Source: Spirochaetia bacterium (GTDB lineage Bacteria; Spirochaetota; Spirochaetia; DSM-16054; Sediminispirochaetaceae). From it: a stretch of 64,000 nucleotides of DNA. The stretch is taken from the NCBI GenBank assembly GCA_034520965.1, contig JAXHMY010000007.1, positions 162,785 to 226,784 of the forward strand. Reading direction: 5' to 3'. This document shows positions 824-36,599 of the stretch, piece by piece; within the stretch, counting starts at the first letter, position 1, and each line of letters opens with the position of its first letter. The notes under the pieces were generated by a model. That model did no database searches and was not told where the DNA came from. It was given only the letters and a program-made list of their open reading frames with translations. A program made the position numbers and the translations under genes.

Positions 824-3715
824 CTATGAAAACAGGTACTCCAGGTCTTCTCTGTTCAGGGACTTTACAAACGAGCTTTCTTCCGCGACGATTTCCTCGG
901 CCAAGGCGGTTTTGTGTTTTTGTAGTGTGAGGATTTTCTCTTCCACGGTAGTTTTGACGATATAGCGGTAGGCGATGACCTTGGAATTGCGACCGATGCG
1001 GTGAACCCGGTCTATCGCCTGGCGTTCAACCGCGGGGTTCCACCACGGATCGAAGAGGAATACGTAATCGGCAGCGGTCAGGTTAATTCCCAGACCGCCG
1101 GCTTTCAAGCTCAGCAGAAACAGCCGGATATTAGGGTCGTTCTGAAATAAGTCGATCTGTTCACGGCGGTCTTTAGTAGAACCGTCAAGGTAGGCGTACC
1201 CGTAACCGGCCTTGGCCGCGAGGGCTTCGATTCGCTTGAGGCTGCCGATAAATTGGGAAAATACGACCGCTTTATACCCTTCGGCGGTAATATCCTCCAG
1301 GGCTTCCCGGAGAAGCTCGAACTTGCACGAAGAAATATTCCGGTACTCATCGCTCACCAGGGATGGAAAGATGGCCGCTTGTCTCAACCGTAAAAGAGCC
1401 TCAAGGATAGTGACGGTTGATTTTTTGATTCCCTCGCGTTCGACATGGCTGTGTACTTTTTCACGGTAGTGTTCGCGTAGATTGTGATAGAATTCTGCCT
1501 GGTCAGTCTGCATTTCCGCGTACAGCAGGATTTCCTCTTTTTCAGGCAAATCCGGAGCTACCGTCTGTTTTGTCCTGCGCAGCACAAAGGGGTGAATCAT
1601 AGAGCGGAGTAGGGCTGTTTTCTCATCCGTGGCGGAGGTCTCCCCGTGGAAGTGTTCCTGCTCTATATCTTTGACAAAACGCTCATAAAACCTTTTTCGG
1701 GTATCCAAGAGCCCCGGGAGGAGAAAGTCAAACTGGGCCCACAGTTCCATCAGGCTGTTTTCGAGAGGTGTGCCGCTGAGTGCCAGCCGGTGGGAAGCGG
1801 AGAGCATCTTGACGGCTTTAAAAGTTTGTGAAGCAGCATTTTTTATAGCCTGGGCCTCGTCCAGAATGAGATAGCTGATATCTTCCTTCAAAAAAAACTC
1901 GATATCGTTGCGCAGAGTAGCATAGCTGGTCAGCACAATATCATGCTGTCTGATTTTTCCTGTATCTCTCTGCTGTCCATGATAACGGTACACCGATAGC
2001 TGCGGGGTAAAGCGTTCGATCTCATTCTGCCAGTTAGGGAGGGTGCTCACCGGGGCGACCACCAGCGCCCTTGTCAGCACAGCTTCATTCTTGCTCTGCT
2101 GCAGCAGCGCAAGGGTTTGTATCGTTTTTCCCAGTCCCATATCATCGGCCAAAACTCCTCCCAAGTGGTAATCGCGTAGAAACAGGAGCCACGAGAGCCC
2201 GGCCTTCTGATACTTTCGAAGCGTTCCCTGAAAGCCCTCTGGTTCTTCAAGCTTCATGAGCCCGGTAAAATTCTCGAGAGAAGCTAGTGATTCGCGAATG
2301 CGTACCAGCTCCACGGAATCATCACTGCGTATATCCCCCGCAAACTCCTTCCAAAAGGCGGGGTTGTAGGTTGGAATTGTTACCCGCCCACGCGTGTCCA
2401 GTCCGAATAGGCGTAATTTTCGCAGTTTCTCGATGGTGCTTTTATCGACTATAAGAAACTCGCCCTTTGTGGAAATTATCCCAGACTCTATGGCGGCCGG
2501 ATCGAAATCGAAGCGCTGCAGCCCTGCTTCGGTCCACTCTCCGGCTTCGACTTCGAGCCAGTTGTTTCTTACTGACACCCGCAGGCCGAAACTCCCGCTG
2601 TTCTTTCTGCGCAGAGGAGTCCCCTGTGTGCGGATCTCGAAGCCCGCCTCAATAAGCGCAGCCGCATGGCTGAGGATAAAGTCTGCGGAGCTTAGCTTGG
2701 CGGTAAAATGGTAGCGTGAACCGGAAGGCTCTTCTCGGATTACCGTTTTGCCCAATTTTTCACGCACCTGTTCAAACCACCCGGAGCTTTGATTCGGTGG
2801 AACAAAATTTAATTCGAGTTTTCCCCCTGCTGTTTCGCGTGCGTAAAAACTGCGGTGTAGATCGAAGTCGTAGAGCGTTGCGTCTATTCTGTAGGTGAGT
2901 TTGAGCGTTATTCCTTCCCGATACTCGGTTATATCTATCACCGGCAATGCCGTTTTGCTGCTCAGCAGATAGTCGGAATAGGTAAAATCGAGGCTCACCC
3001 CCGCAGCTGCCTTCAGCTGTGTGCGCAGGGTATGGATTTCGGACATGCGCAGTGCGCTCGTCTTAAGCAAGTCTTCAGTCGGCGTGTCGATTTTGCTGCT
3101 TTCCCACAAGATCTTACGGGAGTGGCAGCACAGGAGACAGTTACCGGTTTTTTTGGTTCTCTCAATCGAAATGTCCCGATATTCTCGTGAAGCCGGTGAG
3201 GGTGCAGAGAAGCGATAGACCGGTCGAAATAAAACGGAATTGCCGTGCAGCTCCGCTGCTTCAAAATCGATTTGAATGTTGGGATCGGTAATACGCGTGT
3301 ACTCGATAAACTTTGCTGAGACGCTGCGGCCCACCGGAGAGGCGGCCCGCTTTTCGCTACCGTCTCGAGCTTGACTAGGCCCGATAGTGGCTGGATATTT
3401 ATCTTCTCCGATATATTCAAGCAGTAGTGCGCCGATGTGAGAGCAGGGAGGCTCTTCTGCACAACTGCAGGTGCTGTTGAGCACAAACCCGTTGGAGAGC
3501 AGAGTTATCCGTACCCGCTGCCCGTCTTCCGATTGGCTGCCAATCTCTCCTTCTATATCGGTCAACACTTCGGAACTCTTTTCGTAGACCACCGTTTCAT
3601 AGCTAATCCGCAGCCCGCTGTCGAGCAACTGGGCGGCCTGTCGGTATACCGAGTTTCCGAGGAATCCTTTTATCCGTTTTTTGGAAGGTTTCGTTCGTCT
3701 TTGTTTGTGTGCCAT
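824..3715 (-). CDS. SWIM zinc finger + SNF2 family helicase/ATPase
   Basis: CSC..PCSH SWIM motif; LADDMGLGKT, DEAQ, LSGTPLEN, SLKAGGLGINL, QAIDRVHRIG SNF2 motifs. Confidence 0.95.
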   Translation of the reverse strand: MAHKQRRTKPSKKRIKGFLGNSVYRQAAQLLDSGLRISYETVVYEKSSEVLTDIEGEIGSQSEDGQRVRITLLSNGFVLNSTCSCAEEPPCSHIGALLLEYIGEDKYPATIGPSQARDGSEKRAASPVGRSVSAKFIEYTRITDPNIQIDFEAAELHGNSVLFRPVYRFSAPSPASREYRDISIERTKKTGNCLLCCHSRKILWESSKIDTPTEDLLKTSALRMSEIHTLRTQLKAAAGVSLDFTYSDYLLSSKTALPVIDITEYREGITLKLTYRIDATLYDFDLHRSFYARETAGGKLELNFVPPNQSSGWFEQVREKLGKTVIREEPSGSRYHFTAKLSSADFILSHAAALIEAGFEIRTQGTPLRRKNSGSFGLRVSVRNNWLEVEAGEWTEAGLQRFDFDPAAIESGIISTKGEFLIVDKSTIEKLRKLRLFGLDTRGRVTIPTYNPAFWKEFAGDIRSDDSVELVRIRESLASLENFTGLMKLEEPEGFQGTLRKYQKAGLSWLLFLRDYHLGGVLADDMGLGKTIQTLALLQQSKNEAVLTRALVVAPVSTLPNWQNEIERFTPQLSVYRYHGQQRDTGKIRQHDIVLTSYATLRNDIEFFLKEDISYLILDEAQAIKNAASQTFKAVKMLSASHRLALSGTPLENSLMELWAQFDFLLPGLLDTRKRFYERFVKDIEQEHFHGETSATDEKTALLRSMIHPFVLRRTKQTVAPDLPEKEEILLYAEMQTDQAEFYHNLREHYREKVHSHVEREGIKKSTVTILEALLRLRQAAIFPSLVSDEYRNISSCKFELLREALEDITAEGYKAVVFSQFIGSLKRIEALAAKAGYGYAYLDGSTKDRREQIDLFQNDPNIRLFLLSLKAGGLGINLTAADYVFLFDPWWNPAVERQAIDRVHRIGRNSKVIAYRYIVKTTVEEKILTLQKHKTALAEEIVAEESSFVKSLNREDLEYLFS

Positions 3716-3794
3716 ACTACCGCTTTGTTCAAGTTTTAGTAGTAGATGCTACCGAAAAATATACTTTCCGGCAAGCGATTACTCCGTCGCGCAG

Positions 3795-4021
3795 CGCGGA
3801 TGGGGAGGTTATATAAACTACGGATATATAAGGTTTACGCACGTGGGTAACCACGGATGTGCACGGATGGGAGGGGGGAGGTTTTTGAGGGGTAAGAATT
3901 TTAGGCTACTATCCTGGGAGAGCGGCTGGCGATGGTTGACTGCCGCCGTCCCGATATCAGTATTCATTCGTGAACATCCGCGGTTTAATTTATCTTCTTC
4001 CATCCGCGCATATCCGTAGTT
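3795..4021 (+). repeat. Palindromic intergenic repeat family A, full copy
   Basis: Left arm cggatggggaggttatataaactacggatata, inner aaccacggatg, right arms catccgcggtt and atccgtagtt. Confidence 0.9.
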
Positions 4022-4082
4022 AATTTCTTTATTCCTGAAGCAATAGAGTGTTTTGTGCCTCTTTTACTATAGGGAGGCACGT

Positions 4083-4760
4083 ATGCCATCACACTATGAT
4101 GCTTTGTTCAGGCGGCTGTTTGAGAACCCGGAGGTCAGTGCAGATTTTGCCCGTAACTACCTGCCGGTGGATTATAAAGGAAAAATCGACTTCGAGAGTG
4201 CTGCTATTGATCGGGATCCACTGCAGTGTGCCGATTTAGTTGATGCTCTTAGCAGAGCACATGTACCGCACTTTGAACCGCTTTTGTTCGACTTGAACCG
4301 AATTGACGATAAGCGACTGCGCGGATCTGTACAAACGGTGGTGGGCTTGCTATCTTTGAAGTATATTAAGCACCGCTTTACCGAGGGCCTGGTTGCTTAC
4401 CTGCTGCAAGAGCTGCATCGGCTACCACGTGAGAGCAACTTTTTGCATGAGTTCTATATGACTTTGATTAAGTTCAAAGCAGAGGAGGATCTGCAGAGGT
4501 TTCTGCAGATGGCCAGAGAGATGAATTACCGGGATATGGAGGAAGATATGATGACCTACGGACAGAGATTGTTAAAAGAGGGACGGGTCGAAGGTCTGCA
4601 AGACTCGTTGAAAAGACAACTAAAGAAAAAATTCGGCCTGGAAACAGAGGAATCGGTGAAGATAAACCAGATTAAGGATTCCAACAAGCTGGAGGCTGCT
4701 CTTGATGAGATTTTAAGCGCAGAGACAAAGCAGCAGGTGCTGGAGAAGCTGGGGCTGTAG
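4083..4760 (+). CDS. Rpn/YhgA-like protein, copy 1, with an in-frame deletion of about 85 aa covering the nuclease core
   Basis: MPSHYDALFRRLFENPE start after GGGAGG RBS; aligns with 14938-15942 but jumps from IDRD to PLQCAD, losing DLLY...YDHKS...VVFYHG. Confidence 0.85.
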   Translation: MPSHYDALFRRLFENPEVSADFARNYLPVDYKGKIDFESAAIDRDPLQCADLVDALSRAHVPHFEPLLFDLNRIDDKRLRGSVQTVVGLLSLKYIKHRFTEGLVAYLLQELHRLPRESNFLHEFYMTLIKFKAEEDLQRFLQMAREMNYRDMEEDMMTYGQRLLKEGRVEGLQDSLKRQLKKKFGLETEESVKINQIKDSNKLEAALDEILSAETKQQVLEKLGL

Positions 4761-4761
4761 T

Positions 4762-4953
4762 GCCGGCACGGATGGGGAGGTTATATAAACTACGGATATA
4801 TGCTCGGGCTTGCAGCTCTGTGGGCGGGGCAGGCGGGTAACCACGGATGGGCGCGGATGGGAAAAATAATTATTGAGATTTTGAAAGCGGGCGGTGCCAG
4901 GCAGAGACTGCGCCCGGCTCAAAATCAGTGTTCATCCGCGAACATCCGCGGTT
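4762..4953 (+). repeat. Palindromic intergenic repeat family A, full copy
   Basis: Same left arm at 4769; aaccacggatgggcgcggatggga; right arm gttcatccgcgaacatccgcggtt overlaps the stop codon of the convergent gene. Confidence 0.9.
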
Positions 4954-6562
4954 AATTGTTGTTTCCTATAGGTATCAGCATATGCTGAATTAGGAAATTC
5001 AGGTTATTGCATATGTACTTTAATAGTGGGTTCAGTCTTTTTTCATTGGCATCTATACTAAGCAATGAGAGAAACCTTAGATAAATGGTGTCATCGAGAA
5101 TATTCGTCAGGATAAAATCCCAGGTTTCTTTCCTTATCAGAAAATATTTATTGTGCCGTAAGAGGGCCTTAATTCGTGCGTTCTCATTTTTTTCGCCGAA
5201 TTCACGCTGCAACTCTTCAATATTACTGTCTGAAAAATCGAGCACCCTCTGAATCTTTTTTGCCAGATCGGGGTGCAGGGAATCCCCATCTTTCCAATGC
5301 ATTATCTCTTCAGATTCTTCAATATCATATTGTACCAGGTCCTTAGAGGGCGTACCTTCCGAAACTCGGGAAAGGAATTTTTCTGTGAACTCTTTGAGAA
5401 TATTTCCGGAATCTTGGGGCTTACCCTGTGGTTTATATTCCTCAAACACTTCATCAACCAACCGTTTGTCCTGAAAGACAGAATAGAATATGTGCTTTAG
5501 CTGTGGCTCGTCCATATACTGTGTTGTTGAATCCCGAAATCCAGCCATAGCCAAATAGCTTTTCCCGAAAAGAGATGGGATCGTTTCCGGTTCCGGGTCG
5601 CTCTGATTGTTCGGAGTGAGCCGGCTTTCCGGCTGCTGCTCCATTATCCCGGAGTCCAAGATTTCACGAATGCATTCTCTTGGGGTCATGCCGGTTGTGC
5701 TGTCCTCCGACACCAAAATGGTACACAGATCCTCGATAGGAAAGTGCATATCAAGGTAGCTTTCTACCACTTCGTGTATGCCAAGGGTGTTCGGCCGCAC
5801 ATTTTTAAAATAGTTCTTCCAATAGTCACGAATAATCTCCCGGGAAAAGTTTTTCCGAATAAAGGTACCCAGTTCGTTATTTTCTGGATAAAGCAGCAAA
5901 AAGAAAAGCATTTCGATTTGCACTGATGCGTGTGGTACCCATCGTTTTATGCGCTCAAGCAAACGGGAACAATTGCATCTGTCAGGTAATGAAATCGGTT
6001 TTTCGAGATACTGATTCACCCAATCCACGCTCTCCTGAATCTGAGCCCGAGTGATATCTCCGCTCACTACTGCGTGGGGTGTGAGTCTGTCTTCGATAAG
6101 GGTTGCAATCCCAAGCAGATATTTGTGGGAATCATATCCTTGGGTCTTTCCATCGAACACATGATACCCGTCGGTAGAAAGTGCCCTTATTTCCGGCATA
6201 GGGGTTCCATGGTGGTCTAGGAGGGAAAAATAGATGTCGCCATCTCTTTGAGTAGTATCAATATCTTTGTAGTAGTTAATGTCTCTGAACATCAGGAAGG
6301 TCTCAGTGTGCTCAAAACTTGCTAAATCCCCGATGGTAAACCACCCAAGTTTGTCCGGATACCAGGGGCTCAGATATCTCTCCTTTGTGCGGTCCGCATA
6401 GATCATGGTTTCGTCATAGCTATCCCTATCAACTATTTTTTCCATAAAGGGGTACTGTTCTATCAGCTGCAGCGTTTCCTCATAAACCGCTGTCCACTGG
6501 TCCTGTGTTATCCAGCTAAAATCAACAGAAAGTTCAATAACTATTCCCATTTTGCACCTCAC
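4952..6562 (-). CDS. Hypothetical protein (about 530 aa)
   Basis: Long uninterrupted ORF with protein-like composition; no motif recognised. Confidence 0.75.
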   Translation of the reverse strand: MRCKMGIVIELSVDFSWITQDQWTAVYEETLQLIEQYPFMEKIVDRDSYDETMIYADRTKERYLSPWYPDKLGWFTIGDLASFEHTETFLMFRDINYYKDIDTTQRDGDIYFSLLDHHGTPMPEIRALSTDGYHVFDGKTQGYDSHKYLLGIATLIEDRLTPHAVVSGDITRAQIQESVDWVNQYLEKPISLPDRCNCSRLLERIKRWVPHASVQIEMLFFLLLYPENNELGTFIRKNFSREIIRDYWKNYFKNVRPNTLGIHEVVESYLDMHFPIEDLCTILVSEDSTTGMTPRECIREILDSGIMEQQPESRLTPNNQSDPEPETIPSLFGKSYLAMAGFRDSTTQYMDEPQLKHIFYSVFQDKRLVDEVFEEYKPQGKPQDSGNILKEFTEKFLSRVSEGTPSKDLVQYDIEESEEIMHWKDGDSLHPDLAKKIQRVLDFSDSNIEELQREFGEKNENARIKALLRHNKYFLIRKETWDFILTNILDDTIYLRFLSLLSIDANEKRLNPLLKYICNNLNFLIQHMLIPIGNNN

Positions 6563-6870: not shown

Positions 6871-6931
6871 ATTTTCTTGTTTCCTGAAGCAGCAGGCGGT
6901 TTTGTGCCTCTTTAATTATAGGGAGGCGCGT

Positions 6932-7866
6932 ATGCCATCACACTATGATGCCTTGTTCAGGCGACTGTTTGAGAATCCGCAGGTCAGTGCAGATTTTGCT
7001 AGTAATTACCTGCCGGCGGAGTATCAGGAGAAAATCGATTTCAAGAGCGCTTCTATTGACCGGGATATCTATATCGATGAGGTTATAAGGCGAAATTACA
7101 CCGATCTGCTGTACAGGTTTGATAAGAAAGAAGGTAGAGGACAGCTGTATTTGTACCTGCTGTACGATCACAAATCTTCACCGGACAAATGGGTGTCCAT
7201 CCAGCTCCTGCGGTATATCATGCTCATCTACGCAAGTGAACTGAATGAGAACCCAGAAGGTGAATATACTGCCAGAGATTTTTCCGGTGGTCTTTTATCA
7301 TGGGACTGAAGAGTGGAAGCCTTCTCTGCAATCTGCCGATTGTATTGATGCTATTAGTAAAGATCATGTCCCGCATTTTAAGCCGCTTCTGTTCGATTTG
7401 AACCGCATTGACGATAAACAGCTACTCGGATCTGTACAAACGGTGGTGGGCTTGCTATCTTTAAAGTATATCAAGCACCGCTTTACCGAGAGCCTGGTTG
7501 CTTATTTGCTGCAGGAGCTGCATAGGCTTCCGCGTGAGAGCAACTTTTTGCATGAGTTCTATATGACTCTGCTTAAGTTCAAAGCCGAGAAGGAGCTGCA
7601 GACCTTTCTGCAGATAGCCAGAGAGATGAATTACCCGGGACATGGAGGAAGATATAATGACACGCGAACAGAGACTTCTAAAAGATGGACGAATTGAAGC
7701 TTTACAGGATTCACTTAAGAGGCTTATAAAGAAGAAGTTCGGTTTGGAAACAGAGGAATCGGTGAAGATAAACCAGATCAAAGACCCCGCAAAGCTGGAG
7801 GCCGCTCTCGATGAGATCCTAAGCGCAGAGACTAAGCAGCAGGTGCTGGAGAAGCTGGGGCTTTAG
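6932..7866 (+). pseudogene. Rpn/YhgA-like PD-(D/E)XK nuclease, copy 2, two frameshifts (possibly sequencing errors)
   Basis: Three overlapping ORFs (6902-7309, 7245-7697, 7642-7866) tile a homologue of 14938-15942. Confidence 0.85.
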
Positions 7867-7867
7867 A

Positions 7868-8149
7868 GCCGGCACGGATGGGGAGGTTATAGAAACTACG
7901 GATATATGTGGTGTATGCAGGTGGGTCACACAGCTGTGCGCGGATGGGATAATAATTATTATTAAAATTTTAAAGGGAGGCGGCTGTAGAGAGCGGCGCC
8001 GCCCGCCAATATATTCTTTCATCCGTGCATATCCGTAGTTAGTTCCATATCAGTGGTCATCCGCGAATATCTGCGGTTAAATTATATTTCTTATCTTCTT
8101 CCATCCGTGTTCATCCGTAGTTAATTAATTATCTTCCTCATCCGCGGTT
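7868..8149 (+). repeat. Palindromic intergenic repeat family A, full copy with multiplied right arms
   Basis: Left arm at 7875; atccgtagtt at 8031 and 8113; catccgcggtt ending at 8149. Confidence 0.9.
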
Positions 8150-8174
8150 GTCGCAGTCGGTTGCATCGTCGTAG

Positions 8175-8804
8175 TTATTTTTCTACCACACAGGTAAGCC
8201 AGGTGATAGCCTCGCGGCCCAGTCCGTCGCCGGTGGTGGCGCTGCTTATGCTGTGAAAGCCGGCGGATTTGGCCTGGTCGATCCACTCATCGGATGCGAG
8301 GAGCAGGTAGTATCGGCCTTTTTCGTCGTAGCCGCTTTCATCGAGGCCGGGGCGGCTTAAGGGTACGGAGAAGAGGAGTTTTCCGGCTTGCGTTAGCAGC
8401 TGGTGGAGGTGTTCGAAGGTAGGGTGCAGCTGCTCTTGCAAGAGGTGCATGAGGGAGGCGACCGCGTAGATGCCGTTGTAGTGCTCGTGCTCTAAGAGGG
8501 CAGCGGGCAGCTCATCGGGTAGGGCGCCTTGAAAGAGGCGTCCTTCGAGTTGGGGATGGAGGCAAAGGGCTCTGTCGATCATCGCGGGAGCGGGGTCGAT
8601 GCCCTGGACTTCGTATCCCTGCCCACACAGATAGGCTGCTTCCCGGCCGGAGCCGCATCCGATTTCGAGTAGTTGTGCGCCGGGGCTGAAAGTGTCGAGC
8701 AGCCGCCGGTGCAGATCCGCTACTTCGGCGCGTTCGTAGCGTTGTGATAGTTTTTCTGCGTGCTGTTGGTAGTAGCGGATGGTCGAGTTCTTTTCGTGCT
8801 TCAT
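8175..8804 (-). CDS. Class I SAM-dependent methyltransferase
   Basis: LLEIGCGSGREA motif I, GIDP, IYAVASLMHL. Confidence 0.9.
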   Translation of the reverse strand: MKHEKNSTIRYYQQHAEKLSQRYERAEVADLHRRLLDTFSPGAQLLEIGCGSGREAAYLCGQGYEVQGIDPAPAMIDRALCLHPQLEGRLFQGALPDELPAALLEHEHYNGIYAVASLMHLLQEQLHPTFEHLHQLLTQAGKLLFSVPLSRPGLDESGYDEKGRYYLLLASDEWIDQAKSAGFHSISSATTGDGLGREAITWLTCVVEK

Positions 8805-9123: not shown

Positions 9124-10752
9124 CTATCTATCTCTTTTTATTGTGTATAACCCTAGTATTGGTTTATTCCACACCATATTTTTTAGCCAGTTGCTGAGGG
9201 TCTGGTAGTTGGGCAGGCCGAGTAGTTTGGCGGCCTGACGTTTGTTGCCGCCGGCCTGCTGTAGGGCCCGGGGCAGGTAGTGCTGCATTAGTTCAGTCAC
9301 CACATTATCAATATTGAAGTCTTGGTTCAGGGGGCGGTTCAAAAAATGTGGGACGGCTGCGGGAGAATCGGGGGCCGGGTCGGGGCGCACCAGTGATTCT
9401 TCGAGGAGGCTGCGGTTTATTTCGACAGCCGGGCTCCAAAGACAGGCGCGAGTGAGGGTGTTGATCAACTCGCGCACATTCCCGGGCCAGCTGTATTCGC
9501 GGATCAGACGCCGGGCGTCGATTGAAAGCTGCTTGTCTTGCCAGCCTTCAACGCCGGCAAAGCGGGAGTTGAGCTGGCCCAGAAAGTGGTCGGTCAGGGC
9601 TTCGATGTCCCGTTTGCGGCTGTGCAGCGGGGGCAGCTTTAGCACGCCCACGGCTATCCGGTGGAACAGGTCGTTGCGGAAGCTGCCGTCGGCCGACTCG
9701 CGGGCCAGGTCGCGGTTTGTAGCGCTTATTATGCGAAAATCGGAGTGACGGCGGAGGGTGCTGCCGACCCGCTGGAAGGATTGGTCTTGCAGGACCCTCA
9801 GCAGAAGGACCTGCACATGCATCGGCAGCTCGCCGATTTCATCCAGAAACAGAGTTCCGCTGTGGGCTTCTTCGATATAGCCGGTTTTATCACTGGCAGC
9901 CCCGGTAAAGGCGCCTTTTACATATCCGAAGAGCTCGGATTCTACCAGGCCCTGGGGCAGGGCGCCGCAGTTGACCGATATAAAGGGGCCGTCCGCCCGG
10001 CCGGAGGCGTTGTGGATGGCCTTGGCAAACAGCTCCTTGCCGGTGCCGGATTCACCGAGCAGCAGTACGGGCACGTCGAACAGGGCGATGCGACGGGCCC
10101 GGTTGACCGTTCTTTGCATGATTTTGGAGTGATGGATGATTTCGTCAAAGGCCGGGGTGGCCGGGAGCATTTCATCGGGTAAGGCCAGAAGTTTTTCGTC
10201 GACCGGGGAGGTGGTAGTGCTGCGGGGATGATACTCTGCCAAGATATCGAAGGGCAGGATGACCGTCCGCACTCCCTGCTCTTGGCTGGTTTCGATTAAG
10301 CGGGCTGGGTAAATGCTGCTGGCGATCAGGATCCAGGTGGCAGCCATGGCCGGGGTGCCAGGGCTCAGATGAAAGGTGAGGGCCGGAGCCGAATACAAGG
10401 GTTTCCCTTCGGCAGCCGAGCCTGTCTGTGCGGCGGTGCTGTGGCCTCTCTTATGCGGCTTAATTCCATTTAACACCTTAACGGCGTGCTCGTAGATTTC
10501 GGCAAACTCGGTGGGCGAGCTGAGCTCCACCAGGTGTGTCGAGATTTCGAGGTCCGAATGGCGCTGCTGCAGCCAGGCGACATAGGCGGTGGTCTCGGCC
10601 TGCGAATAATTGGAAAGCAGAGTGAGGGATTCGTAGGGCTCGGAGGCGAGGGCCTGGGCGATGGGGCCGGCGCCGACCCCGGGTTCGTGCTGGGAGGCAC
10701 GGATATCAGTGCCTCCAAGCCATGCGCATAATCGCGGCGGTTGCAAGCTCAT
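9124..10752 (-). CDS. Sigma-54 enhancer-binding activator with N-terminal CARF-like domain (RtcR-like)
   Basis: N-term CAWLGGTD and [10 protein letters not shown] (CARF-like); AAA+ [39 protein letters not shown]; Fis-type HTH. Likely start MSLQPP at 10752; one A missing in a run near 9180 would restore an ending of WLKKYGVE*. Confidence 0.9.
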
Positions 10753-10763
10753 AGGGTAATAGT

Positions 10764-10797
10764 ATAACAAATCTTGTAGGGGCACAAGAAAATTTAT
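10764..10797 (-). promoter_or_regulatory. Palindromic operator (site 1) overlapping a putative sigma-70 promoter of the activator gene
   Basis: Minus strand ATAAATTTTCTTGT-gcccct-ACAAGATTTGTTAT; overlaps TTGTGC-17-TACTAT ending 6 nt before the ATG. Confidence 0.65.
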
Positions 10798-10874
10798 TAT
10801 GCTATTGGTAGGTAGGGGCCGGCGGCTGGCCGCGGGACGTAGCAGCCGGGTTGGGTGGCTGCGTGAAGCCTCGC

Positions 10875-12074
10875 TCACATTATCGCTCCGTAGAGCTCCA
10901 CCGGATCGCTCAGGTCCCACAGGGTCCAGTTGCTGCTCATGGCATCGGAGAAACGGCCGATGGAGTCGTAGTCGATGGGGATCCAGTAGCCGGGACGCAG
11001 GTAGGCGGTGGTGTAGGCGACCTCAGTAAGGCTTCCGTTCTGGTCTGCTTCGCCACTGACGTGTATGTAGCCGTAGCCGTTGATCGGGCGGGCCGACCAG
11101 ACCATGGCAAGGGCGTGTCCGCTGCCGCCGCCGGGCGGGTAGAAGCTGGCCACCTTGCTGTTCCAGCCCCAGAACTCCAGCAGGCCGCAGGTGTACAGGG
11201 CGAAGTCTTCGCAGTCGCCGCCCTGTTGGGCCAAAAACTCATCCGGGGGCAGGGCGCGGTGGTTCGCTCGGTAGGTAAACAGCCGGTAGGTCTGCCGCTG
11301 AAAGGCCTCTACCTCCCGCCAGCTGAGGTGTCCGTTGCGGTCGGTGTCGGCTCCCATGTAGCGGGCCAGGAGTTGGCCATTGGTCAGGCCGGTACGCTGA
11401 TAAAAAAGGTGGGAGTTGATCCAGTAATGGGCCTGCCGCCCGCTGTTGAAGCTGCGGCCTAGCTGGGCAGCCGTTATCCGGCCACTGGAGCTGCGGGAGA
11501 GGCGGTAGCCGCGGTAGGTCCAGCTGGCCGGCGGAGTGGGGGCAGTGCTTCTCTCAGCTCGCCCGCCATCAGACCCGTGAGCCCTGTCGGCCTGGTAAGA
11601 TTCGGATTCATCGGCCCTCGAACCGCCGGCGCCGTCGCTAAGGTACTCTGTCAGGACTCCGGAGCTAAGCAGTGCCCATAGGATTACTGCCAGCCCTGCG
11701 ATAGTGAAGCTGAGCCGGAAGAACTCGGCCAAGCCGCTCGAACCGGTGTTTTTGGCCGCGGCGGTGGTGTTTTTCTCGACCGGCCGCGGAGGGGCTGCCC
11801 TCGGACTCGGGGTTGGGTTCCGGGTTTCGGGCGGGGCCGCCAAAATGTGGGCCTGCCCTTCGACGATTTGCAGCCTCCGCAGGGCAAATGTGCGCCGTTC
11901 ATGGCGCAGGTAACAGTAGGTCCGCACGTAATTATTTCCCCAGCGCTCGTAAAACTCCAGCGGCACGATGATACGCTGCGATACCTCGCCTTCGCCGTTT
12001 TCATACTGTATTCGGACCGATTGATGTCCGTTCTGCAGCGCCTCTAAGGCGCGGCGTGTCCGTAACTCTTCCAT
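10875..12074 (-). CDS. WYL domain - transmembrane helix - EF-hand-like loop - transglutaminase-like cysteine protease fusion
   Basis: [20 protein letters not shown]...[62 protein letters not shown]...GHALA...WIPIDY triad pattern. Confidence 0.8.
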
Positions 12075-12085
12075 ACCAACCTATA

Positions 12086-12102
12086 TGCAATTTTCGTACC
12101 AA
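12086..12102 (-). promoter_or_regulatory. Sigma-54 (-24/-12) promoter for the WYL fusion gene
   Basis: Minus strand TTGGTACGAAAATTGCA (GG-N10-GC); predicted +1 about 12075, next to the ATG at 12074 (leaderless). Confidence 0.75.
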
Positions 12103-12107: not shown

Positions 12108-12124
12108 TTGGCATGGAAATTGCA
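12108..12124 (+). promoter_or_regulatory. Sigma-54 promoter for the beta-barrel gene
   Basis: TTGGCATGGAAATTGCA (GG-N10-GC), back to back with the minus-strand promoter. Confidence 0.8.
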
Positions 12125-12136: not shown

Positions 12137-12207
12137 GGGATGCATGTCCTGTAGTCGATTTCCGGCCGTCGGAAAGCCGCAGGGCCAGAGCCAGTAGCCG
12201 GCTGCAG
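12137..12207 (-). repeat. Dispersed repeat family B
   Basis: Reverse complement gccggctactggctctggccc...tacaggacatgcatc matches 53650-53735 and 59533-59636. Confidence 0.75.
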
Positions 12208-12246
12208 CGTGCAGCCTGACAAGTAAACCAGCGATGGAGGAAGTGT

Positions 12247-12828
12247 ATGCGCACTTTGTTGACGATTGTGTTGTTGTTTGGGTTTGCCGGGGGAGGTCTT
12301 TTTGCCCAGGCGGACGCACAGGGGCGGGGATTTATGTTTCAGATAGGTTTGGGAGCCGCTGAGATAGAGTGGCCCCAGGGGTTGAAAGAGCTGATGGACT
12401 ATGCCGAAGGCCAGCCGGATATAGACCGGGTGAAGGTGCATCTGAACCTGGGCCTGGGGGCGGCAGTGAGCGAAAATCTGTACCTGTTGGGCAGTCTGCA
12501 GGGCTACGGCGACCGCCTGGAGGACAGCTATGGTGACTATGTCCAGATAAATGCGTATCTGTTTGGCCTGGGGCTGCGCTGGTATCCCTTTGTAGCCGGA
12601 CTGGTGCTGGGCGGCGACATCGGGGCCGCCCGCCTGGTGGCTATGGGCTCGGGGGTAGAGAGCAATGCCTCCGAATGGGGCAACGGCTTGGGCTTTACGG
12701 CCGGCTACGATTTCGGCGGCCGCCCGACCGGCGTGTCCCTGATTCTGGGGCTGCGGTTCGACGGCATGAGCGTCGAGGGCGAGTCGGTGGGCACCGCGGC
12801 CCTGTTTCTGAACCTGGCTTTTAAGTAA
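12247..12828 (+). CDS. Outer-membrane beta-barrel protein
   Basis: Signal peptide, alternating Gly/aromatic strands (FGLGLRWYPF, GFTAGYDF), C-terminal LNLAFK; GGAGG RBS. Confidence 0.75.
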   Translation: MRTLLTIVLLFGFAGGGLFAQADAQGRGFMFQIGLGAAEIEWPQGLKELMDYAEGQPDIDRVKVHLNLGLGAAVSENLYLLGSLQGYGDRLEDSYGDYVQINAYLFGLGLRWYPFVAGLVLGGDIGAARLVAMGSGVESNASEWGNGLGFTAGYDFGGRPTGVSLILGLRFDGMSVEGESVGTAALFLNLAFK

Positions 12829-12834: not shown

Positions 12835-12869
12835 ATAAAATATTTTGTTGCCGGTACAAATTATTTTAT
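12835..12869 (+). promoter_or_regulatory. Palindromic operator/UAS (site 2)
   Basis: ATAAAATATTTTGT-tgccggt-ACAAATTATTTTAT, 13/14 inverted match; centre 70 bp upstream of the GG of the 12920 promoter. Confidence 0.7.
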
Positions 12870-12919: not shown

Positions 12920-12936
12920 CTGGCACGCTTCTTGCA
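12920..12936 (+). promoter_or_regulatory. Sigma-54 promoter upstream of the PrsW gene
   Basis: CTGGCACGCTTCTTGCA, essentially the consensus YTGGCACG-N4-TTGCW. Confidence 0.85.
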
Positions 12937-13170: not shown

Positions 13171-14697
13171 GTGAAAATGGTGTTGATTATTTCGGTGGCA
13201 ACCAGTCTTATCTGGATAAAAATTCTGAAAACCTTTGATGATGCCCAGGGGCTGAAGAGCAAGCGGACGGCGGTGAGCGGGTTTTTTCTGTACGGGCTGC
13301 TGAGCGTGCCGCTGGTGCTGCTGCTGTACGCATTGGCCGGACCGCTGGTGTATCCGATTACCCGCGATTCGGCGGTGCTGGAGAACCTGTTTTTGGTGGG
13401 GCCGGTGGAAGAGCTGGGCAAGTTCCTGGTTTTCTATCTGGTGGCTGTGGGCAGCGGGTCGATCCAGGAGCCCCGCGACGGGGTGCTGCACGCCGCTTCG
13501 GTGGGGCTGGCCTTTGCGGTGGTGGAGAACGTGTTTTACTCGGTATACGGCCTGGAATTGCTGCTGTACCGCTCTATGCTGACCACCGCCGGCCACATGA
13601 GTTATGCGGCCATCTGGGGTTTTGCGGCGGGGGTGTATTTGTACACACGGCCGGCGTTTATGCGGGCTGCGGCAGCGACTGCGGCTTCCCGGGGCTCAGC
13701 TGCCGGAGGGGCTGTGCCGCTTAAGCCTGGTGAATCGGAGAGCTTTGCCGACGGAGCGGCCTACGGGCCATCACTGGTGGTGAGTGCAGTGGCTTCGGCG
13801 GCCCTGCTGCACGGTCTGTACAACAGCTTTCTCGACCTGGGGGCCCTTGGTGCGGCCCTGCTGCTGGATGCCGGGACTGTTCTGCTGGCACTGGTCGGCC
13901 TGTCGCACCTGAAGAAACTCTCCCCCTTCGCAGAGTTTCCGTTCTCGCAGTACCGCTTGGCTATTCCCCAGTTGAAGGAGGCCCTGCGGCACAATCCGGA
14001 TAACTTCGTACTGCACAAGCGCCTGGGGCTGCACTACATCCGCAGCCGGGACACCGCCAAGGGACGGCGCCACTTGCGACGGGCCTCCCACATCAGGCCG
14101 CGCGAGCTGTCCAGCCGCTTTTATCTGGCGCTGCTGGACTACCTGTTGGCGGGCCCGGGCAGACGAAGCCAAAGACAGCGGGCGAGGGGTGTGGTACCGG
14201 TGCTCTGGTCGCAGAGCAGGCTGATCGGCGGGGCTACACTGCGGCTTGGCAATAAAGCTGCAAACGATCCTGCAGCTGCTCCCGCCGATGAGGCCCGCCA
14301 GGCCCTGCACCGCCTGGCTGTGCGGATACCCCTGAAAAGCCTGAGACAGCTGCGCCGCCAGGTGAAACAGGTTTTTGCGGTACATCCGCGCCGCCGCGAG
14401 CTGTTTGAAATATGCGAGGAACTGGTTGCCGGTAAACGCGGTAAGAGCAGCAGCCCCCTGGACCGTGACGGGGTACTGCACCGCGGCCGGGAATATCCTG
14501 CGCACGAGGAGAGGCTTCGCGGGAAGGCGGCTCAAGAGGGATTGGCTCGCGAGTGTCCGGCCCTCGCGTCCGACACGAAGTCGGGGAGAATTTACTTTCC
14601 CGAGCCTCCCCTGGCGGCGGTGAATCCGCAGCTGGCCGCTAGGAAGATTCGTGCGACCGGCAGGATCATCGAACAGAAACGGCGGGAGATCGGCTGA
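13171..14697 (+). CDS. PrsW family glutamic intramembrane protease with C-terminal TPR-like region
   Basis: GPVEELGKF, GLAFAVVEN, GHMSYAAIWG, ALLHGLYN motifs; multiple TM; LKEALRHNPDNFVLHKRLGLHY TPR-like. Confidence 0.9.
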   Translation: MKMVLIISVATSLIWIKILKTFDDAQGLKSKRTAVSGFFLYGLLSVPLVLLLYALAGPLVYPITRDSAVLENLFLVGPVEELGKFLVFYLVAVGSGSIQEPRDGVLHAASVGLAFAVVENVFYSVYGLELLLYRSMLTTAGHMSYAAIWGFAAGVYLYTRPAFMRAAAATAASRGSAAGGAVPLKPGESESFADGAAYGPSLVVSAVASAALLHGLYNSFLDLGALGAALLLDAGTVLLALVGLSHLKKLSPFAEFPFSQYRLAIPQLKEALRHNPDNFVLHKRLGLHYIRSRDTAKGRRHLRRASHIRPRELSSRFYLALLDYLLAGPGRRSQRQRARGVVPVLWSQSRLIGGATLRLGNKAANDPAAAPADEARQALHRLAVRIPLKSLRQLRRQVKQVFAVHPRRRELFEICEELVAGKRGKSSSPLDRDGVLHRGREYPAHEERLRGKAAQEGLARECPALASDTKSGRIYFPEPPLAAVNPQLAARKIRATGRIIEQKRREIG

Positions 14698-14868: not shown

Positions 14869-14937
14869 AAATTTTTTTCCTGGTTTTTTTGAAGCAGAAG
14901 GCGCCTTTTGTGCCTCTTTTACTATAGGGAGGCGCGT

Positions 14938-15942
14938 ATGCCAGCACACTATGACGCTTTGTTCAGGCGGCTGTTTGAAAAGCCGGAGGTCAGCGCAGAT
15001 TTTATTCGTAATTATCTGCCGGCGGGCTATCAGGGGAAAATAGATTTCGAAAGTGCTACTATTGATCCGGACACCTATATCGATGAGGTTCTCCGACGGA
15101 ATTACACTGATCTGCTGTACAGGTTTGATAAAAGAGAAGGCGGCGGACCGCTGTATGTGTACCTGCTGTACGACCACAAATCATCACCGGACAAATGGGT
15201 GTCCATTCAGCTGCTGCGTTATATCATGCTCATCTACAGGAAGGAGCTGGAGAAGAAACATCCGCCGACGATACTACCGGAGGTGTTTCCGGTGGTCTTC
15301 TATCATGGGACTGAAGAGTGGACCCATTCACTGCAATGCGCCGATACTATTGATGCGCAGCGCAGAGAACATCTGCCGCATTTTAAGCCGTTTCTGTTTG
15401 ATTTGAACCGTATTGATGATAAACAGCTGCGCGGATCTGTACAAACGGTGGTGGGCTTGCTATCTTTAAAGTATATCAAGCAGCGCTTCACCGAGAGCAT
15501 AGTTGCTTACCTGCTGCAAGAGCTGCATCGGCTACCGCGTGAGAGTAGTTTTTTGCATGAGTTCTATATGACTCTGATTAAGTTCAAAGCAGAGGAGGAG
15601 CTGCAGAGGTTTCTGCAGAAGGCCAGAGAGATGAATTACCGGGATATGGAGGAAGATATAATGACGCGCGAACAGAGATTGTTAAAAGAGGGTCGGGCCG
15701 AAGGGCTTGAAAAAGGACTTCAAGAGGGCCGTGTCGAAGGACTTCAAGAAGGACGAGGTGAGGGCCGTGTCGAAGGCCTGCAAGACTCGTTGAAACGACA
15801 ACTGAAGAAGAAGTTCGGTCTGAAAACGGAAGAATCGGTGAAGATAAACCAGATTAAAGAGCCAGCTAAATTAGAATCGGCCCTGGATGAGATAATAACC
15901 GCAGAGACCAAGCAGCAGGTGCTAGACAAGCTGGGCCTGTAG
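14938..15942 (+). CDS. Rpn/YhgA-like PD-(D/E)XK nuclease, copy 3, intact
   Basis: HYDALFRRLF, TDLLY, YLLYDHKSSPD, QLLRYI, FPVVFYHG, EG-repeat coiled coil, conserved helical C-terminus. Confidence 0.9.
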   Translation: MPAHYDALFRRLFEKPEVSADFIRNYLPAGYQGKIDFESATIDPDTYIDEVLRRNYTDLLYRFDKREGGGPLYVYLLYDHKSSPDKWVSIQLLRYIMLIYRKELEKKHPPTILPEVFPVVFYHGTEEWTHSLQCADTIDAQRREHLPHFKPFLFDLNRIDDKQLRGSVQTVVGLLSLKYIKQRFTESIVAYLLQELHRLPRESSFLHEFYMTLIKFKAEEELQRFLQKAREMNYRDMEEDIMTREQRLLKEGRAEGLEKGLQEGRVEGLQEGRGEGRVEGLQDSLKRQLKKKFGLKTEESVKINQIKEPAKLESALDEIITAETKQQVLDKLGL

Positions 15943-16319: not shown

Positions 16320-16354
16320 ATAAAATTTTTTATTTCTATTACAAGTTATTTTAT
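16320..16354 (+). promoter_or_regulatory. Palindromic operator/UAS (site 3)
   Basis: ATAAAATTTTTTAT-ttctatt-ACAAGTTATTTTAT; centre 89 bp upstream of the GG of the 16424 promoter. Confidence 0.6.
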
Positions 16355-16423: not shown

Positions 16424-16440
16424 TTGGCATGCTTATTGCT
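16424..16440 (+). promoter_or_regulatory. Sigma-54 promoter upstream of the lipoprotein genes
   Basis: TTGGCATGCTTATTGCT (GG-N10-GC). Confidence 0.8.
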
Positions 16441-16519: not shown

Positions 16520-17254
16520 ATGCAAAAGATTTTATTAGTTCTTGCCTTCGCATCAGTAGTATTGAGCTCATGTGTCTCCTACCGACTCGATCCGGTACCG
16601 AACCAGAATATCGAGGTTCGACATGAGCGGGGCGCAACATATCCCATCTACGAAAGTTCAAAGATAGGAATGGTTGTAGCACCAGAGTTTAGAGAATCGG
16701 AGCTGATGGTAAAGGTGACTGTGAAGAATAACAGCGGCAAAGAGATGTTTATCAGCGATACGGATTTTATAGTCGAAGTGAGCGAGGACAGGCAGAACTG
16801 GAACCCGCTTAAAGTGTATGCATCGGATGAGTACTACGCTAAGGAAAAGCGCGCGTATACCGTTGGGGCGGTGTTGATGGTTATCTCGGCCACCGCCGAT
16901 ACCGCTTCCGCCGGCTATGGCAGCAGTACTACCAGCGGAAATGTGTACGGTTCGGGTACCTACGGTTCCTATTCCGGAAGCTACAGCGGCACCACCACTT
17001 ACTACGATCCGACTGCAGCTGAATTGGCGGCTCAACGCAATTCCCAGATGGTTTCGCAGTATGCCCAGGAAGGGCAGGGCTGGCTGCAGCTGCTCGAGGA
17101 CAATCTATTTTATTCGAAGGACCTACGGCCAAACGAGACCTATTTCGGTTTAGTGTTTGCAGAGAAAGGCTATGGAGATTACTACCGCATCACCTGTACT
17201 AATCCTGATTTTGAGATTGTACGGATTGAGTATGTAAAGCGGGAGGATAGATAA
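16520..17254 (+). CDS. Putative lipoprotein
   Basis: MQKILLVLAFASVVLSSC lipobox; AGGAG RBS; Gly/Ser/Tyr-rich middle segment. Confidence 0.8.
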   Translation: MQKILLVLAFASVVLSSCVSYRLDPVPNQNIEVRHERGATYPIYESSKIGMVVAPEFRESELMVKVTVKNNSGKEMFISDTDFIVEVSEDRQNWNPLKVYASDEYYAKEKRAYTVGAVLMVISATADTASAGYGSSTTSGNVYGSGTYGSYSGSYSGTTTYYDPTAAELAAQRNSQMVSQYAQEGQGWLQLLEDNLFYSKDLRPNETYFGLVFAEKGYGDYYRITCTNPDFEIVRIEYVKREDR

Positions 17255-17330: not shown

Positions 17331-18368
17331 ATGAAAGTGAAGATATTGAAACATGTAGTATTGCCAATTTTTATTAGCGTTATGTTCATATCATGTACAT
17401 CAATGGTTGAAAACGGAACTATGAGTCGTACTCAATCGACACCGGCGTCGACGCCATCAGCTAAGAATAATGCAGTCAGTGAAAAAGATGAGGGCAGCGA
17501 AGAACTTCAATCAGCCCAAGAGCGTATTGCCGAACTCGAGGCAGAGAACAAACAGCTAAAGGAAGAAATAGAGTCGCTCAATCAATCTCCGGAGGTGATG
17601 TTTCGAAAAGCGGTATCACTTAAGGAGGATGACCCGCAGCAGGCGATGAGGCTGCTAAAGGAAATAACTGTCAAGTTCCCACTTAGTGAGTACAGTGAAC
17701 CTGCGCAGGAAGAGTTAGCAGCGTTGGTCAAAACTACTGAAGAAGAACTAAAGCGAGTACTTTCGGAGAAAGAGATTCCTGCCGAAGCAAGGTTACAGAC
17801 TATTCAAATTACTTTAGACAGTTATGGAAGCTATCTGAGTGATGAGCTTGTGAGCCGAGCTGAGCAAGAAATAGAGGAGTTGCAAACGGAGATCAAGCGA
17901 ACTAAATATATCCGTTCGCGTTATGATGAGATGCAGGAGGTTACTTTTCACTCATCCCGCAGAGATACTTCAACAAGAACTAATCGGGGATACTTTTCAA
18001 TCGATTTCTATATAGTCGAGTCGGATAAAACCGACAGTACCTATTTTAGATTCCGTGCGAATTACCGGGGAGAAAGTTGGATTTTTTATAAGAAAATTAC
18101 TCTGCTGGGGAGTAACGGAGTAAAGCTTGAAATCGAGCCCGATGAGTACCGGGAAAAAGAAACCGAGGTTGAGACGGGAGGTGTGCGGGAGTGGTCCGAC
18201 AGCTACCTTTCCGATTCCTACAATGACAAAATTCTCGAACTGGCCGAGGCGGAGACTGTTAAGGTGCGATTTGACGGAAAGTATCGCATTGATTTTGAGA
18301 TGACCGAGAAACAGCGTGCGGCGCTGAAGGAGATAGTCTCGCTGTATGAACACCTTTCTAAGGGATAG
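17331..18368 (+). CDS. Putative lipoprotein with coiled coil and TPR-like segment
   Basis: Signal ending FISC; ERIAELEAENKQLKEEI coiled coil; LKEITVKFPLSEYS TPR-like. Confidence 0.8.
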   Translation: MKVKILKHVVLPIFISVMFISCTSMVENGTMSRTQSTPASTPSAKNNAVSEKDEGSEELQSAQERIAELEAENKQLKEEIESLNQSPEVMFRKAVSLKEDDPQQAMRLLKEITVKFPLSEYSEPAQEELAALVKTTEEELKRVLSEKEIPAEARLQTIQITLDSYGSYLSDELVSRAEQEIEELQTEIKRTKYIRSRYDEMQEVTFHSSRRDTSTRTNRGYFSIDFYIVESDKTDSTYFRFRANYRGESWIFYKKITLLGSNGVKLEIEPDEYREKETEVETGGVREWSDSYLSDSYNDKILELAEAETVKVRFDGKYRIDFEMTEKQRAALKEIVSLYEHLSKG

Positions 18369-24271: not shown

Positions 24272-24838
24272 ATGATGCACGGATATACATATAAGACCAA
24301 AAATCGGGGCCAAACCTATTTCATTATGGTGTTTATTTCAATTGTTGCGTTTGATTTACTCAGTACCGGATTGGACAGAGCTCAGCTCGAATTCCCTTGG
24401 TACCTCTCCATACCTTCGGCTTCTGCATTATTCGGTGCAATCTACTACATGTACTCACAGTGTTTATGGAAAATGTCTATACTGGATTATCCACCATTAA
24501 TAGCTGGAAGATGGAAGGGACAAGTTAATTCCTCCTGGTCAGATCACCCTACAGAGGCAACGCTTACGCTTAAACAGACTTGGAATAAGATTTCGGTACG
24601 ACTGGAAACGGAATATTCAGATTCGTATAGCCTCGGAGCTTTTTTTGCATCCGAAGGAGATACACACTTGCATTATGAGTACTTGAACACCCCAAGAAAC
24701 AACTCACCGTCTACGCAGAACACTCACCACGGGACTGCAAAGATTATCCAAAAGAGCAGAACTAAGCTCATCTGCCAGTATTATAGTGACCGAGATCGTA
24801 GTAATATTGGAACTATATATCTTCAGAAAACTAATTAA
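24272..24838 (+). CDS. CBASS Cap15-like 2TM + beta-barrel effector
   Basis: Two N-terminal TM helices, then GRWKGQVNSSW, QTWNKISVRLETEYSDSYS, YEYLNTP, HHGTA, YYSDRDR; follows the CD-NTase. Confidence 0.88.
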   Translation: MMHGYTYKTKNRGQTYFIMVFISIVAFDLLSTGLDRAQLEFPWYLSIPSASALFGAIYYMYSQCLWKMSILDYPPLIAGRWKGQVNSSWSDHPTEATLTLKQTWNKISVRLETEYSDSYSLGAFFASEGDTHLHYEYLNTPRNNSPSTQNTHHGTAKIIQKSRTKLICQYYSDRDRSNIGTIYLQKTN

Positions 24839-36559: not shown

Positions 36560-36599
36560 GGTCTAGAACAAAAATAAGTGATCTGATACAATTCGGCTT

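Follow-up and report, generated by a model that had tools for sequence, protein, structure and literature searches.

The closest working analogy for the gene described here is the LapD-LapG system of Pseudomonas fluorescens and Legionella pneumophila, in which a cytoplasmic nucleotide-type signal governs periplasmic proteolysis by LapG, a Ca-binding protease of the transglutaminase fold with a Cys-His-Asp triad (PMC4359373). We analysed a 64,000-nt stretch of a Spirochaetia bacterium of the Sediminispirochaetaceae (contig JAXHMY010000007.1, positions 162,785 to 226,784; hereafter the window), in which an open reading frame (ORF) on the minus strand at 10875..12074 encodes a 399-aa protein combining a WYL domain, a single transmembrane (TM) helix, an EF-hand-like loop and a transglutaminase-like domain. 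The coordinates and residues were re-derived, and homologues with the same architecture were found; for brevity, we call it the WYL-peptidase gene, after its putative activity. The reading we favour, at somewhat better than even confidence, is that the product is a sigma-54/CARF-induced, membrane-anchored periplasmic Ca-dependent (iso)peptidase that uses its cytoplasmic WYL domain as a second input. Compared with LapD-LapG, the sensor and the protease would here form one membrane-tethered polypeptide, whereas LapG is soluble; the sensor is a WYL domain rather than a degenerate GGDEF-EAL module with HAMP, an EF-hand-like loop is added, and neither an adhesin nor LapD was seen near the window gene.

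Other parts of the locus recall other known systems. The cytoplasmic domain shares the WYL fold, a conserved Arg-rich face and an occurrence in defence islands with BrxR, CapW, PafBC and DriD, but it comes without a helix-turn-helix (HTH) or WCX domain, and its output would be a periplasmic enzyme domain on the other side of the membrane. In addition, BrxR is encoded upstream of BREX, whereas the BREX locus of the window has no BrxR. The neighbouring gene encodes an activator with the CARF-AAA+-HTH layout of RtcR and RtcR_PspF2 proteins, paired with a sigma-54-driven target as rtcR is with rtcBA, although the target here is a membrane WYL-peptidase together with envelope genes and not an RNA repair operon. 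RtcR-like activators unlinked to Rtc and located near restriction-modification systems were noted by Makarova et al. 2014 (PMC4012209). For the enzyme domain, PeiW and PeiP, the pseudomurein endoisopeptidases that serve as lysins of methanogen phages, are structurally close (Z 8.8 each, within 1 Z of LapG), so that cleavage of cell-wall peptides stays a possible activity; they are soluble and act on archaeal pseudomurein, in contrast to the bacterial, membrane-bound window protein with its WYL and EF-hand parts. TgpA of Pseudomonas aeruginosa is likewise an inner-membrane protein with a periplasmic transglutaminase-like Cys-His-Asp domain, to which our model shows a weak match (6g4h, Foldseek E 3.7e-2); TgpA itself has more than one TM helix, several in all, and is not known to carry a cytoplasmic sensor domain.

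To our knowledge, WYL domains have so far been found in soluble proteins, namely transcription regulators, helicases and Cas accessory factors. The fusion partners of WYL listed in the main text of Makarova et al. 2014 (PMC4012209) comprise Cas3, nucleases, a helicase, a nucleotidyltransferase, BRCT and TerB, with no WYL-transglutaminase or membrane WYL protein among them; in the supplement of that paper, the string "transglut" is absent from the WYL list, and its only five occurrences are in the CARF-neighbour table (file 9). A full-text literature search combining WYL with transglutaminase or transmembrane gave no description of the architecture among the papers listed, with the 2020 CARF classification and the Chatterjee 2012 LapG structure outside its coverage. 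WYL sensor-effector fusions and CARF/sigma-54 regulons are known kinds. A conserved family with WYL inside and a LapG-like enzyme outside would offer a testable case of inside-out nucleic-acid-type signalling to the envelope, in which the protein may link sensing inside the cell to cell-envelope remodelling. The pairing also gives the poorly understood RtcR_PspF2 CARF activators a defined target gene, so that the inducing signal can be assayed with a reporter; activators of this class are usually constitutive once the CARF domain is removed. If a defence role is true, an extracytoplasmic effector class would be added to defence islands.

An earlier note, made from the letters of this stretch, had proposed the same order of parts: an N-terminal WYL domain without HTH or WCX, a Pro-rich linker, one TM helix, an EF-hand-like loop and a Cys-His-Asp transglutaminase-like domain, with WYL inside the cell and the enzyme outside. 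Each part was recovered by the analysis, and the topology found support. An AlphaFold2 (AF2) model of the 399-aa protein built on 32 relatives had a mean predicted local distance difference test (pLDDT) score of 80.6, with confident regions at residues 1-75 (mostly above 87) and 180-399 and disordered stretches at 79-113 and 146-170. The cytoplasmic WYL domain occupies residues 1-79 (11838..12074, minus strand), with the Pfam core PF13280 at residues 17-70 scoring 31.0 bits against a cut-off of 21.8, and the profile of the 32 relatives matches the WYL domain of PafBC (E 4.9e-13). Residues 1-79 of the model form an Sm/SH3-like beta-barrel (pLDDT ~90) that superposes on solved WYL domains: PafBC 6sj9 (Z 11.8, root-mean-square deviation (rmsd) 1.9, 77 aligned residues), CapW 7tb6 (Z 11.7), BrxR 7qfz (Z 10.9) and DriD (Z 8.8), with Foldseek E-values of about 1e-4. 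Seven residues in ~55 positions are invariant (Y24, R34, C54, R57, R61, F63 and R67), and the Arg-rich RxFRxxR stretch is common to this domain and PafBC; the pocket residues of CapW are described in PMC11662680.

No Pfam HTH family matched the 399-aa protein at E up to 1, and only one 13-residue helix (residues 2-14) stands ahead of the barrel. A WCX domain was not found either: the barrel is followed directly by the disordered Pro-rich linker (residues 79-113) and then by the TM helix, and matches to WYL regulators are essentially confined to model residues 1-82. With both HTH and WCX missing, the protein is not a regulator of the BrxR/CapW type. Its WYL domain would instead bind a ligand, possibly single-stranded DNA (ssDNA), RNA or a cyclic nucleotide, and modulate the outer enzyme.

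The Pro-rich linker (residues 80-113; 11736..11837, minus strand) contains 8 Pro in 35 residues, falls below pLDDT 50 over residues 79-113 and varies in length across the alignment. It leads into a single TM helix assigned to residues 114-141 (11652..11735, minus strand) from a model helix at 114-137 and from hydrophobicity, the best 19-residue Kyte-Doolittle window being 123-141 with a mean of 2.14. Of the 120 family members with both the WYL and the Cys motif, 114 have a hydrophobic 19-mer (Kyte-Doolittle >=1.6) in the intervening stretch, and the N-terminal flank of this helix is the more positive one in 98/120. The charge bias, together with the lack of a signal peptide ahead of the WYL domain, points to a type II (N-in, C-out) orientation, probably in the inner membrane. 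Short relatives without a WYL domain exist, and they keep the TM helix as an N-terminal anchor, consistent with the same topology. An acidic linker then separates the TM helix from the EF-hand-like loop.

This loop, a candidate Ca-binding site at residues 243-254 (11313..11348, minus strand), satisfies every canonical position and lies between two helices in the AF2 model (233-241 and 252-265). Among 164 proteins, the key positions were conserved as follows: D1 in 161, D/N3 in 164, D/N/S5 in 162, G6 in 127, L/I/M8 in 164 and E12 in 161; the complete loop was canonical in 125/164. The family profile gave weak matches to EF-hand proteins (3.6e-4 to 1e-2). Since there is one loop only, not a pair of EF-hands, and its Pfam score is sub-threshold, it is best named EF-hand-like.

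The periplasmic transglutaminase-like domain covers residues 221-399 (10878..11414, minus strand). PF01841 (Transglut_core) matched residues 259-339 with 25.9 bits against a cut-off of 23, and the predicted catalytic residues are C288 (11211-11213), H320 (11115-11117) and D368 (10971-10973), the DCED motif being encoded at 11205-11216, all on the minus strand. The triad and the whole GGDCED motif are invariant in the 32 aligned relatives, and the combination DCE[DG]xA + His + P[IV][DE][YF] was present in 133/194 retrieved proteins, fragments included. The best fold match of the outer domain is Ca-bound LapG (4fgo; Z 9.8, rmsd 3.4, 127 aligned), followed at Z 8.9-8.3 by 3kd4 (BDI_1141), PeiP, TglA, PeiW, 3isr and CPR-C4; eukaryotic transglutaminases reach Z ~7 (human TG3, Z 7.3). 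A single-sequence search of PDB sequences with the C-terminal 221 aa gave nothing significant (LapG E 0.96). The family profile aligned the Cys-motif stretch with LapG (E 5.8e-3), in which D287-C288-E289-D290 of the window protein is invariant. LapG carries a functionally important Ca near its active site (PMC4359373); its D139 is named as a Ca ligand, and Ca activation recurs in the transglutaminase-fold superfamily (both from PMC4866520). With LapG and the Pei enzymes as closest folds and Ca activation recurrent in the superfamily, the outer domain is predicted by analogy to be a Ca-dependent peptidase or isopeptidase and not a cross-linker. The nearest language-model clusters, to be taken as leads only, were small Transglut_core proteins of Methanobacteriota and phages (0.90-0.92).

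An exhaustive search of representatives returned 289 relatives at E <=1e-3, 97 of them at <=1e-30; a word-indexed search returned 65, and those with names were only "WYL domain-containing protein" from Spirochaetota metagenome-assembled genomes (MAGs). The WYL RxF motif and GGDCED occur together in 120/194 retrieved family proteins. No NCBIfam family matched the 399-aa protein, and relatives of greater length, reaching 620 aa, add no Pfam domain to the set. One copy of the gene is present in its own genome, and its distribution is rare and patchy: full-length matches were found in 2/401 genomes sampled across the phylum, in 6/31 close relatives including its own genome and in 2/9 other genomes of the same genus. 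No full-length relative was found in IMG/VR, where six loci match only ~17-80 residues around the Cys motif, and we do not propose a phage origin.

Directly downstream on the same strand lies a gene (9124..10752, ATG at 10752) for a 542-aa sigma-54 enhancer-binding protein of the RtcR_PspF2 type with CARF, AAA+ and HTH parts. Both the adjacency on one strand and the CARF nature of this neighbour, as asserted in the earlier note, were borne out: besides Pfam Sigma54_activat (8.4e-66), the activator matches the PADLOC model PDLC01995 RtcR_PspF2--CARF_AAA_HTH over its full length (7.3e-175; residues 8-526 to positions 4-478/481), and the family profile of its N-domain matches the CARF domain of Csm6 (5.2e-6). 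Pfam RtcR was matched by 8/9 aligned activator N-domains, the window's own being the unmatched one; the activator is below the NCBIfam RtcR equivalog cut-off (325.7 vs 650 bits), and no RtcA or RtcB family was found among the scanned window ORFs.

We compared the locus with others numbered L001 onwards, 28 of which are related to the WYL-peptidase gene. An activator homologue adjoins the family gene in 13/28 of them and in 0/28 short loci around ordinary WYL proteins (L047-L074) drawn from the same tblastn database. Its orientation is divergent in L002, L008, L010, L012, L014, L018 and L021, and co-directional and downstream, as in the window, in L001, L081, L082 and L084; it lies at ~6 kb in L020 and is a fragment in L025. 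TM-peptidase variants without a WYL domain (L018, L021) keep the activator, and L018 also keeps the promoter described below.

The 122-nt intergenic gap between the two genes (10753..10874, minus strand) contains no terminator-like site, which makes read-through into the activator gene plausible. An extended -10-like element, TGTTATACT (10761-10769, minus strand), was recognised by eye; it ends 8 nt before the activator ATG and is shared by L001. The scanning tool made no sigma-70 call in the gap. The earlier proposal that read-through could create positive feedback gains support from the sigma-54 promoter and the lack of a terminator, while the apparent promoter of the activator itself means that read-through would not be its sole source of transcription.

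Three features go beyond the earlier note: a sigma-54 promoter, a conserved activator pairing and the location in a BREX defence island. A sigma-54-type promoter of the GG-N10-GC pattern, TGGTACGAAAATTGC, lies at 12087..12101 on the minus strand with 1 mismatch and ends 12 nt before the ATG at 12074. Sites with <=1 mismatch were found on the coding strand within a 180-nt interval at the gene 5' end in 9/16 relatives, the background being 48 such sites per 1.07 million strand-bases over all loci, or 0.008 per 180-nt interval; looser versions occur in L005, L011, L012, L025 and L081. Nine loci (window, L002, L008, L013, L014, L017, L018, L081 and L082) have a spacing of 12-15 nt between the GC element and the ATG, and four (L005, L006, L010 and L012) have 21-27 nt. 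The shorter spacing implies leaderless transcripts; examples of such promoter-to-start stretches are 12074-12101 in the window, 7977-8006 in L017, 5634-5663 in L018, 8874-8901 in L082 and 4113-4142 in L081. A sigma-54 promoter needs an enhancer-binding protein, and the adjacent activator may be the one that drives the WYL-peptidase promoter.

Back to back with this promoter, a divergent sigma-54-type promoter, TGGCATGGAAATTGC (12109..12123, plus strand; inverted repeat I1), faces the gene at 12247..12828 (plus strand), which encodes a 193-aa secreted protein that resembles an outer membrane protein (OMP) by eye. Its N-terminus is signal-peptide-like and its C-terminus reads LAFK; no Pfam or NCBIfam family was matched, so the OMP assignment is put forward as a suggestion. 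Further along, a PrsW-type intramembrane protease fused to tetratricopeptide repeats (TPR) is encoded at 13171..14697 (plus strand) behind a perfect sigma-54 site (12921-12935), and PrsW-TPR homologues adjoin the family gene in L023, L081 and L082. A 35-bp palindrome, ATAAAATATTTTGT-N7-ACAAATTATTTTAT (12835..12869), lies 51 nt before the 12921 promoter as a candidate enhancer (upstream activating sequence, UAS). Its second copy (16320-16354) lies 70 nt ahead of another sigma-54-type promoter, TGGCATGCTTATTGC (16425-16439, plus strand). The palindrome, which can also be written ATAAAATNTTTTNT-N7-ACAANTTATTTTAT, has these two sites only in the window, with 0 expected from 100 shuffles. The 16425 promoter precedes the genes 16520-17254 and 17331-18368, which run into brxA; neither these two products nor those of 4952-6562 and 12247-12828 matched an informative family.

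Altogether, 4/5 of the window's sigma-54 sites with <=1 mismatch fall within 12.1-16.4 kb (a 4.4-kb stretch), which suggests a candidate local sigma-54 regulon, with the palindrome looking like an enhancer for the adjacent activator. Two side observations concern this cluster. The 345-aa product of 17331-18368, encoded just upstream of brxA, has a 71%-identical homologue in L082 (13343-14308), which is preceded by an identical TGGCATGCTTATTGC promoter; the gene therefore belongs to the sigma-54 cluster and not to BREX proper. In the same-genus relative L081, two small genes (3560-4070) that look by eye like a Phd/YefM-type antitoxin and a toxin stand between the PrsW-TPR promoter and the WYL-peptidase gene.

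We propose the following sequence of events for the module. The CARF domain of the activator would detect infection or RNA damage through a nucleotide or RNA-end signal, and the activator would then switch on the gene of the WYL-TM-peptidase through its sigma-54 promoter. In this genome it may also induce the OMP-like protein, the PrsW-TPR protease and further envelope genes, as well as its own gene in a feed-forward manner, as the activator gene follows without a terminator. The WYL domain would provide a second, post-translational input, responding to ssDNA, RNA or a cyclic nucleotide; with linkers this floppy, ligand-driven clustering or tethering is more likely than a rigid relay. The outer domain would then cut envelope proteins or cell-wall peptides, possibly in the service of defence or stress. 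A more specific version, which we put forward tentatively and regard as doubtful, is a two-tier envelope effector, induced through CARF and sigma-54 on infection or RNA damage, in which WYL gates or clusters the Ca-dependent (iso)peptidase and surface proteins are shed or the cell wall is cut. If true, it would mean receptor removal or abortive lysis, the first WYL domain signalling across a membrane, and a defence-island effector that acts outside the cytoplasm and stands where BREX loci usually carry BrxR.

Several observations weigh against the proposal of a sigma-54/CARF-induced, WYL-controlled periplasmic peptidase. Both linkers are disordered and variable in length, an argument against a rigid conformational relay from WYL to the outer domain. 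The loop scores below the cut-off of Pfam EF-hand_6 (12.7 vs 25 bits). The fold scores of the outer domain (Z 8-10) are moderately above the best Z of 7-8 typical of unmatched models, so the sequence evidence of an invariant triad and GGDCED matters; the LapG family Peptidase_C93 (PF06035) is unmatched by the window protein at E up to 1, and its score in one relative (P0173) is 20.0 bits, short of the cut-off of 27. No PADLOC model matched the 399-aa protein at 1e-8. As to regulation, TGGTACGAAAATTGC has T for C at position 4 and lies too close to the start codon to fit in a leader or Shine-Dalgarno sequence, and therefore requires a leaderless mRNA; the promoter is absent at L016 and L085, and 15/28 related loci show no activator, many of these having very short flanks.

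A search of the WYL gene's own promoter for the 35-bp palindrome and its half-site was negative, so the argument for control by the adjacent activator draws on adjacency and on the similar AT-rich repeats between the divergent promoters of the orthologous L082 locus. A repeat search at the WYL promoter gave weak repeats only, such as GGCTGCA..TGCAGCC at 12198-12215, from which we draw no claim. A further point on the same side is that rpoN was not found in the own assembly (PF04552, PF04963 and TIGR02395), which consists of 9 contigs and is 85.9% complete. The gene is present in 20/20 relatives, including 9/9 of the same genus, and the own genome encodes 8 strong sigma-54 activators; its absence is probably an assembly gap.

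The same facts can be read in other ways. The protein might be an ordinary constitutive housekeeping peptidase or cross-linker whose WYL domain is an anchor, an oligomerisation module or a degenerate remnant, with sigma-54 control reflecting general envelope stress. The WYL-less relatives L018 and L021 with their same promoter/activator context fit this account, as do the disordered, variable linkers, the resemblance of the co-regulated genes to envelope proteins and the lack of defence neighbours in L010, L017, L018 and L021. We nevertheless judge it unlikely, because seven WYL residues, including the Arg-rich RxFRxxR, are invariant among relatives only 29-81% identical, unlike in a decaying remnant, and because a gene of such rare and patchy occurrence is not housekeeping. 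PADLOC matches also occur among the neighbours in 8/14 related loci, a figure that has no background control; the models concerned are AbiE, HNH, GajB-like, RmrA/CapP-like and the candidate systems PDC-S01 and PDC-S09. Alternatively, the tethered WYL domain could bind the CARF domain of the activator as a feedback partner, either inhibiting it in the style of PspA-PspF or enabling it in the style of RtcA/RtcB-RtcR, and so report envelope or periplasmic conditions (Ca, substrate) from outside in. The two genes are indeed tightly and repeatedly paired; E. coli offers a precedent, as activation of RtcR there requires RtcA and RtcB, the products of the regulated operon, which bind its CARF domain in trans (PMC9650030), and CARF and WYL genes co-occur frequently (PMC4012209). 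Yet the pairing persists in the WYL-less L018 and L021 and hence needs no WYL domain, and the invariant catalytic triad points to an enzyme, not a sensor domain, which makes a feedback partner rather improbable in our view.

A single-chain analogue of LapD/LapG, in which WYL reads cyclic di-GMP (c-di-GMP) and the LapG-like domain frees a surface adhesin, would place the protein in attachment instead of defence. LapG is the best fold match and the known case of cytoplasmic nucleotide control over periplasmic proteolysis (PMC4359373), perception of c-di-GMP by a WYL transcription factor has a published report (PMC11880434), and L011 has a GGDEF-EAL neighbour. This account is nonetheless very unlikely: we saw neither a giant adhesin nor type-1 secretion genes adjoining the gene in the window or in annotated relatives, Peptidase_C93 is unmatched, and the context is one of CARF/sigma-54 and defence, with c-di-GMP turnover in 1/14 loci. 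There is, finally, the question of an artefact, either an assembly chimera, which the earlier note had named as a refutation of its reading, or a dead gene. The gene does sit in a GC-rich patch of a metagenome-type assembly near Rpn/YhgA-like genes, and its relative in L025 is a decayed copy. Against this, the reading frame is unbroken, and 120/194 retrieved proteins from many assemblies share the architecture. The contigs of run X1 that tile the gene show no joints, and an independent contig from a separate metagenome study (X3, record 17) crosses the junction, spanning 11500-12041 at ~93% identity with only an in-frame 3-nt gap and so taking in WYL, the linker, the TM helix and the first part of the outer domain. 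As far as contig data can tell, the fusion is real and the artefact is refuted, with a negligible probability left to it.

The wider setting of the WYL-peptidase gene and its activator is a BREX defence island. The defence scan placed a type 1 BREX locus with brxA, brxB, brxC, pglX-like, pglZ and brxL genes at 18466-46749. Its brxC-pglZ stretch is interrupted by genes for a Cap15-like cyclic-dinucleotide receptor (24272-24838) and McrBC (32409-33716), by an IS66 element (36212-37841) and likewise by AAA_21 and Schlafen/AlbA_2 genes. The own genome holds two WYL domains in total, and as the second is far outside the window, the BREX locus is without BrxR. We considered a BREX-specific linkage of the WYL-peptidase module and rejected it, as only two loci, the window and the decayed L025, adjoin brxA.

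In L025, from another spirochaete MAG, the decayed module (6045-6476 and 7990-8770) consists of an activator fragment and a WYL-peptidase pseudogene with an in-frame stop and an internal deletion that removes the catalytic core; it lies directly upstream of a BrxE-like gene, brxA, brxB and brxC. In the window, three Rpn/YhgA-like (Transposase_31) genes were noted at 4053-4760, 6902-7866 and 14908-15942: of these, one is intact, another has broken up into three overlapping ORFs and the remaining one is partial. Two copies with ~80% similarity bracket a GC-rich segment (0.55-0.62 vs ~0.44) that contains a methyltransferase, the activator, the WYL-peptidase, the OMP-like gene and PrsW-TPR. Within the BREX locus, the pglX-like methylase is apparently split (25279-27114 and 27083-28036). 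The window also encodes SNF2 and UvrD/DEAD helicases, and a 1613-aa protein at 47688-52529 (minus strand) joins two helicase modules, one of the DEAD/Helicase_C kind and one of the UvrD type.

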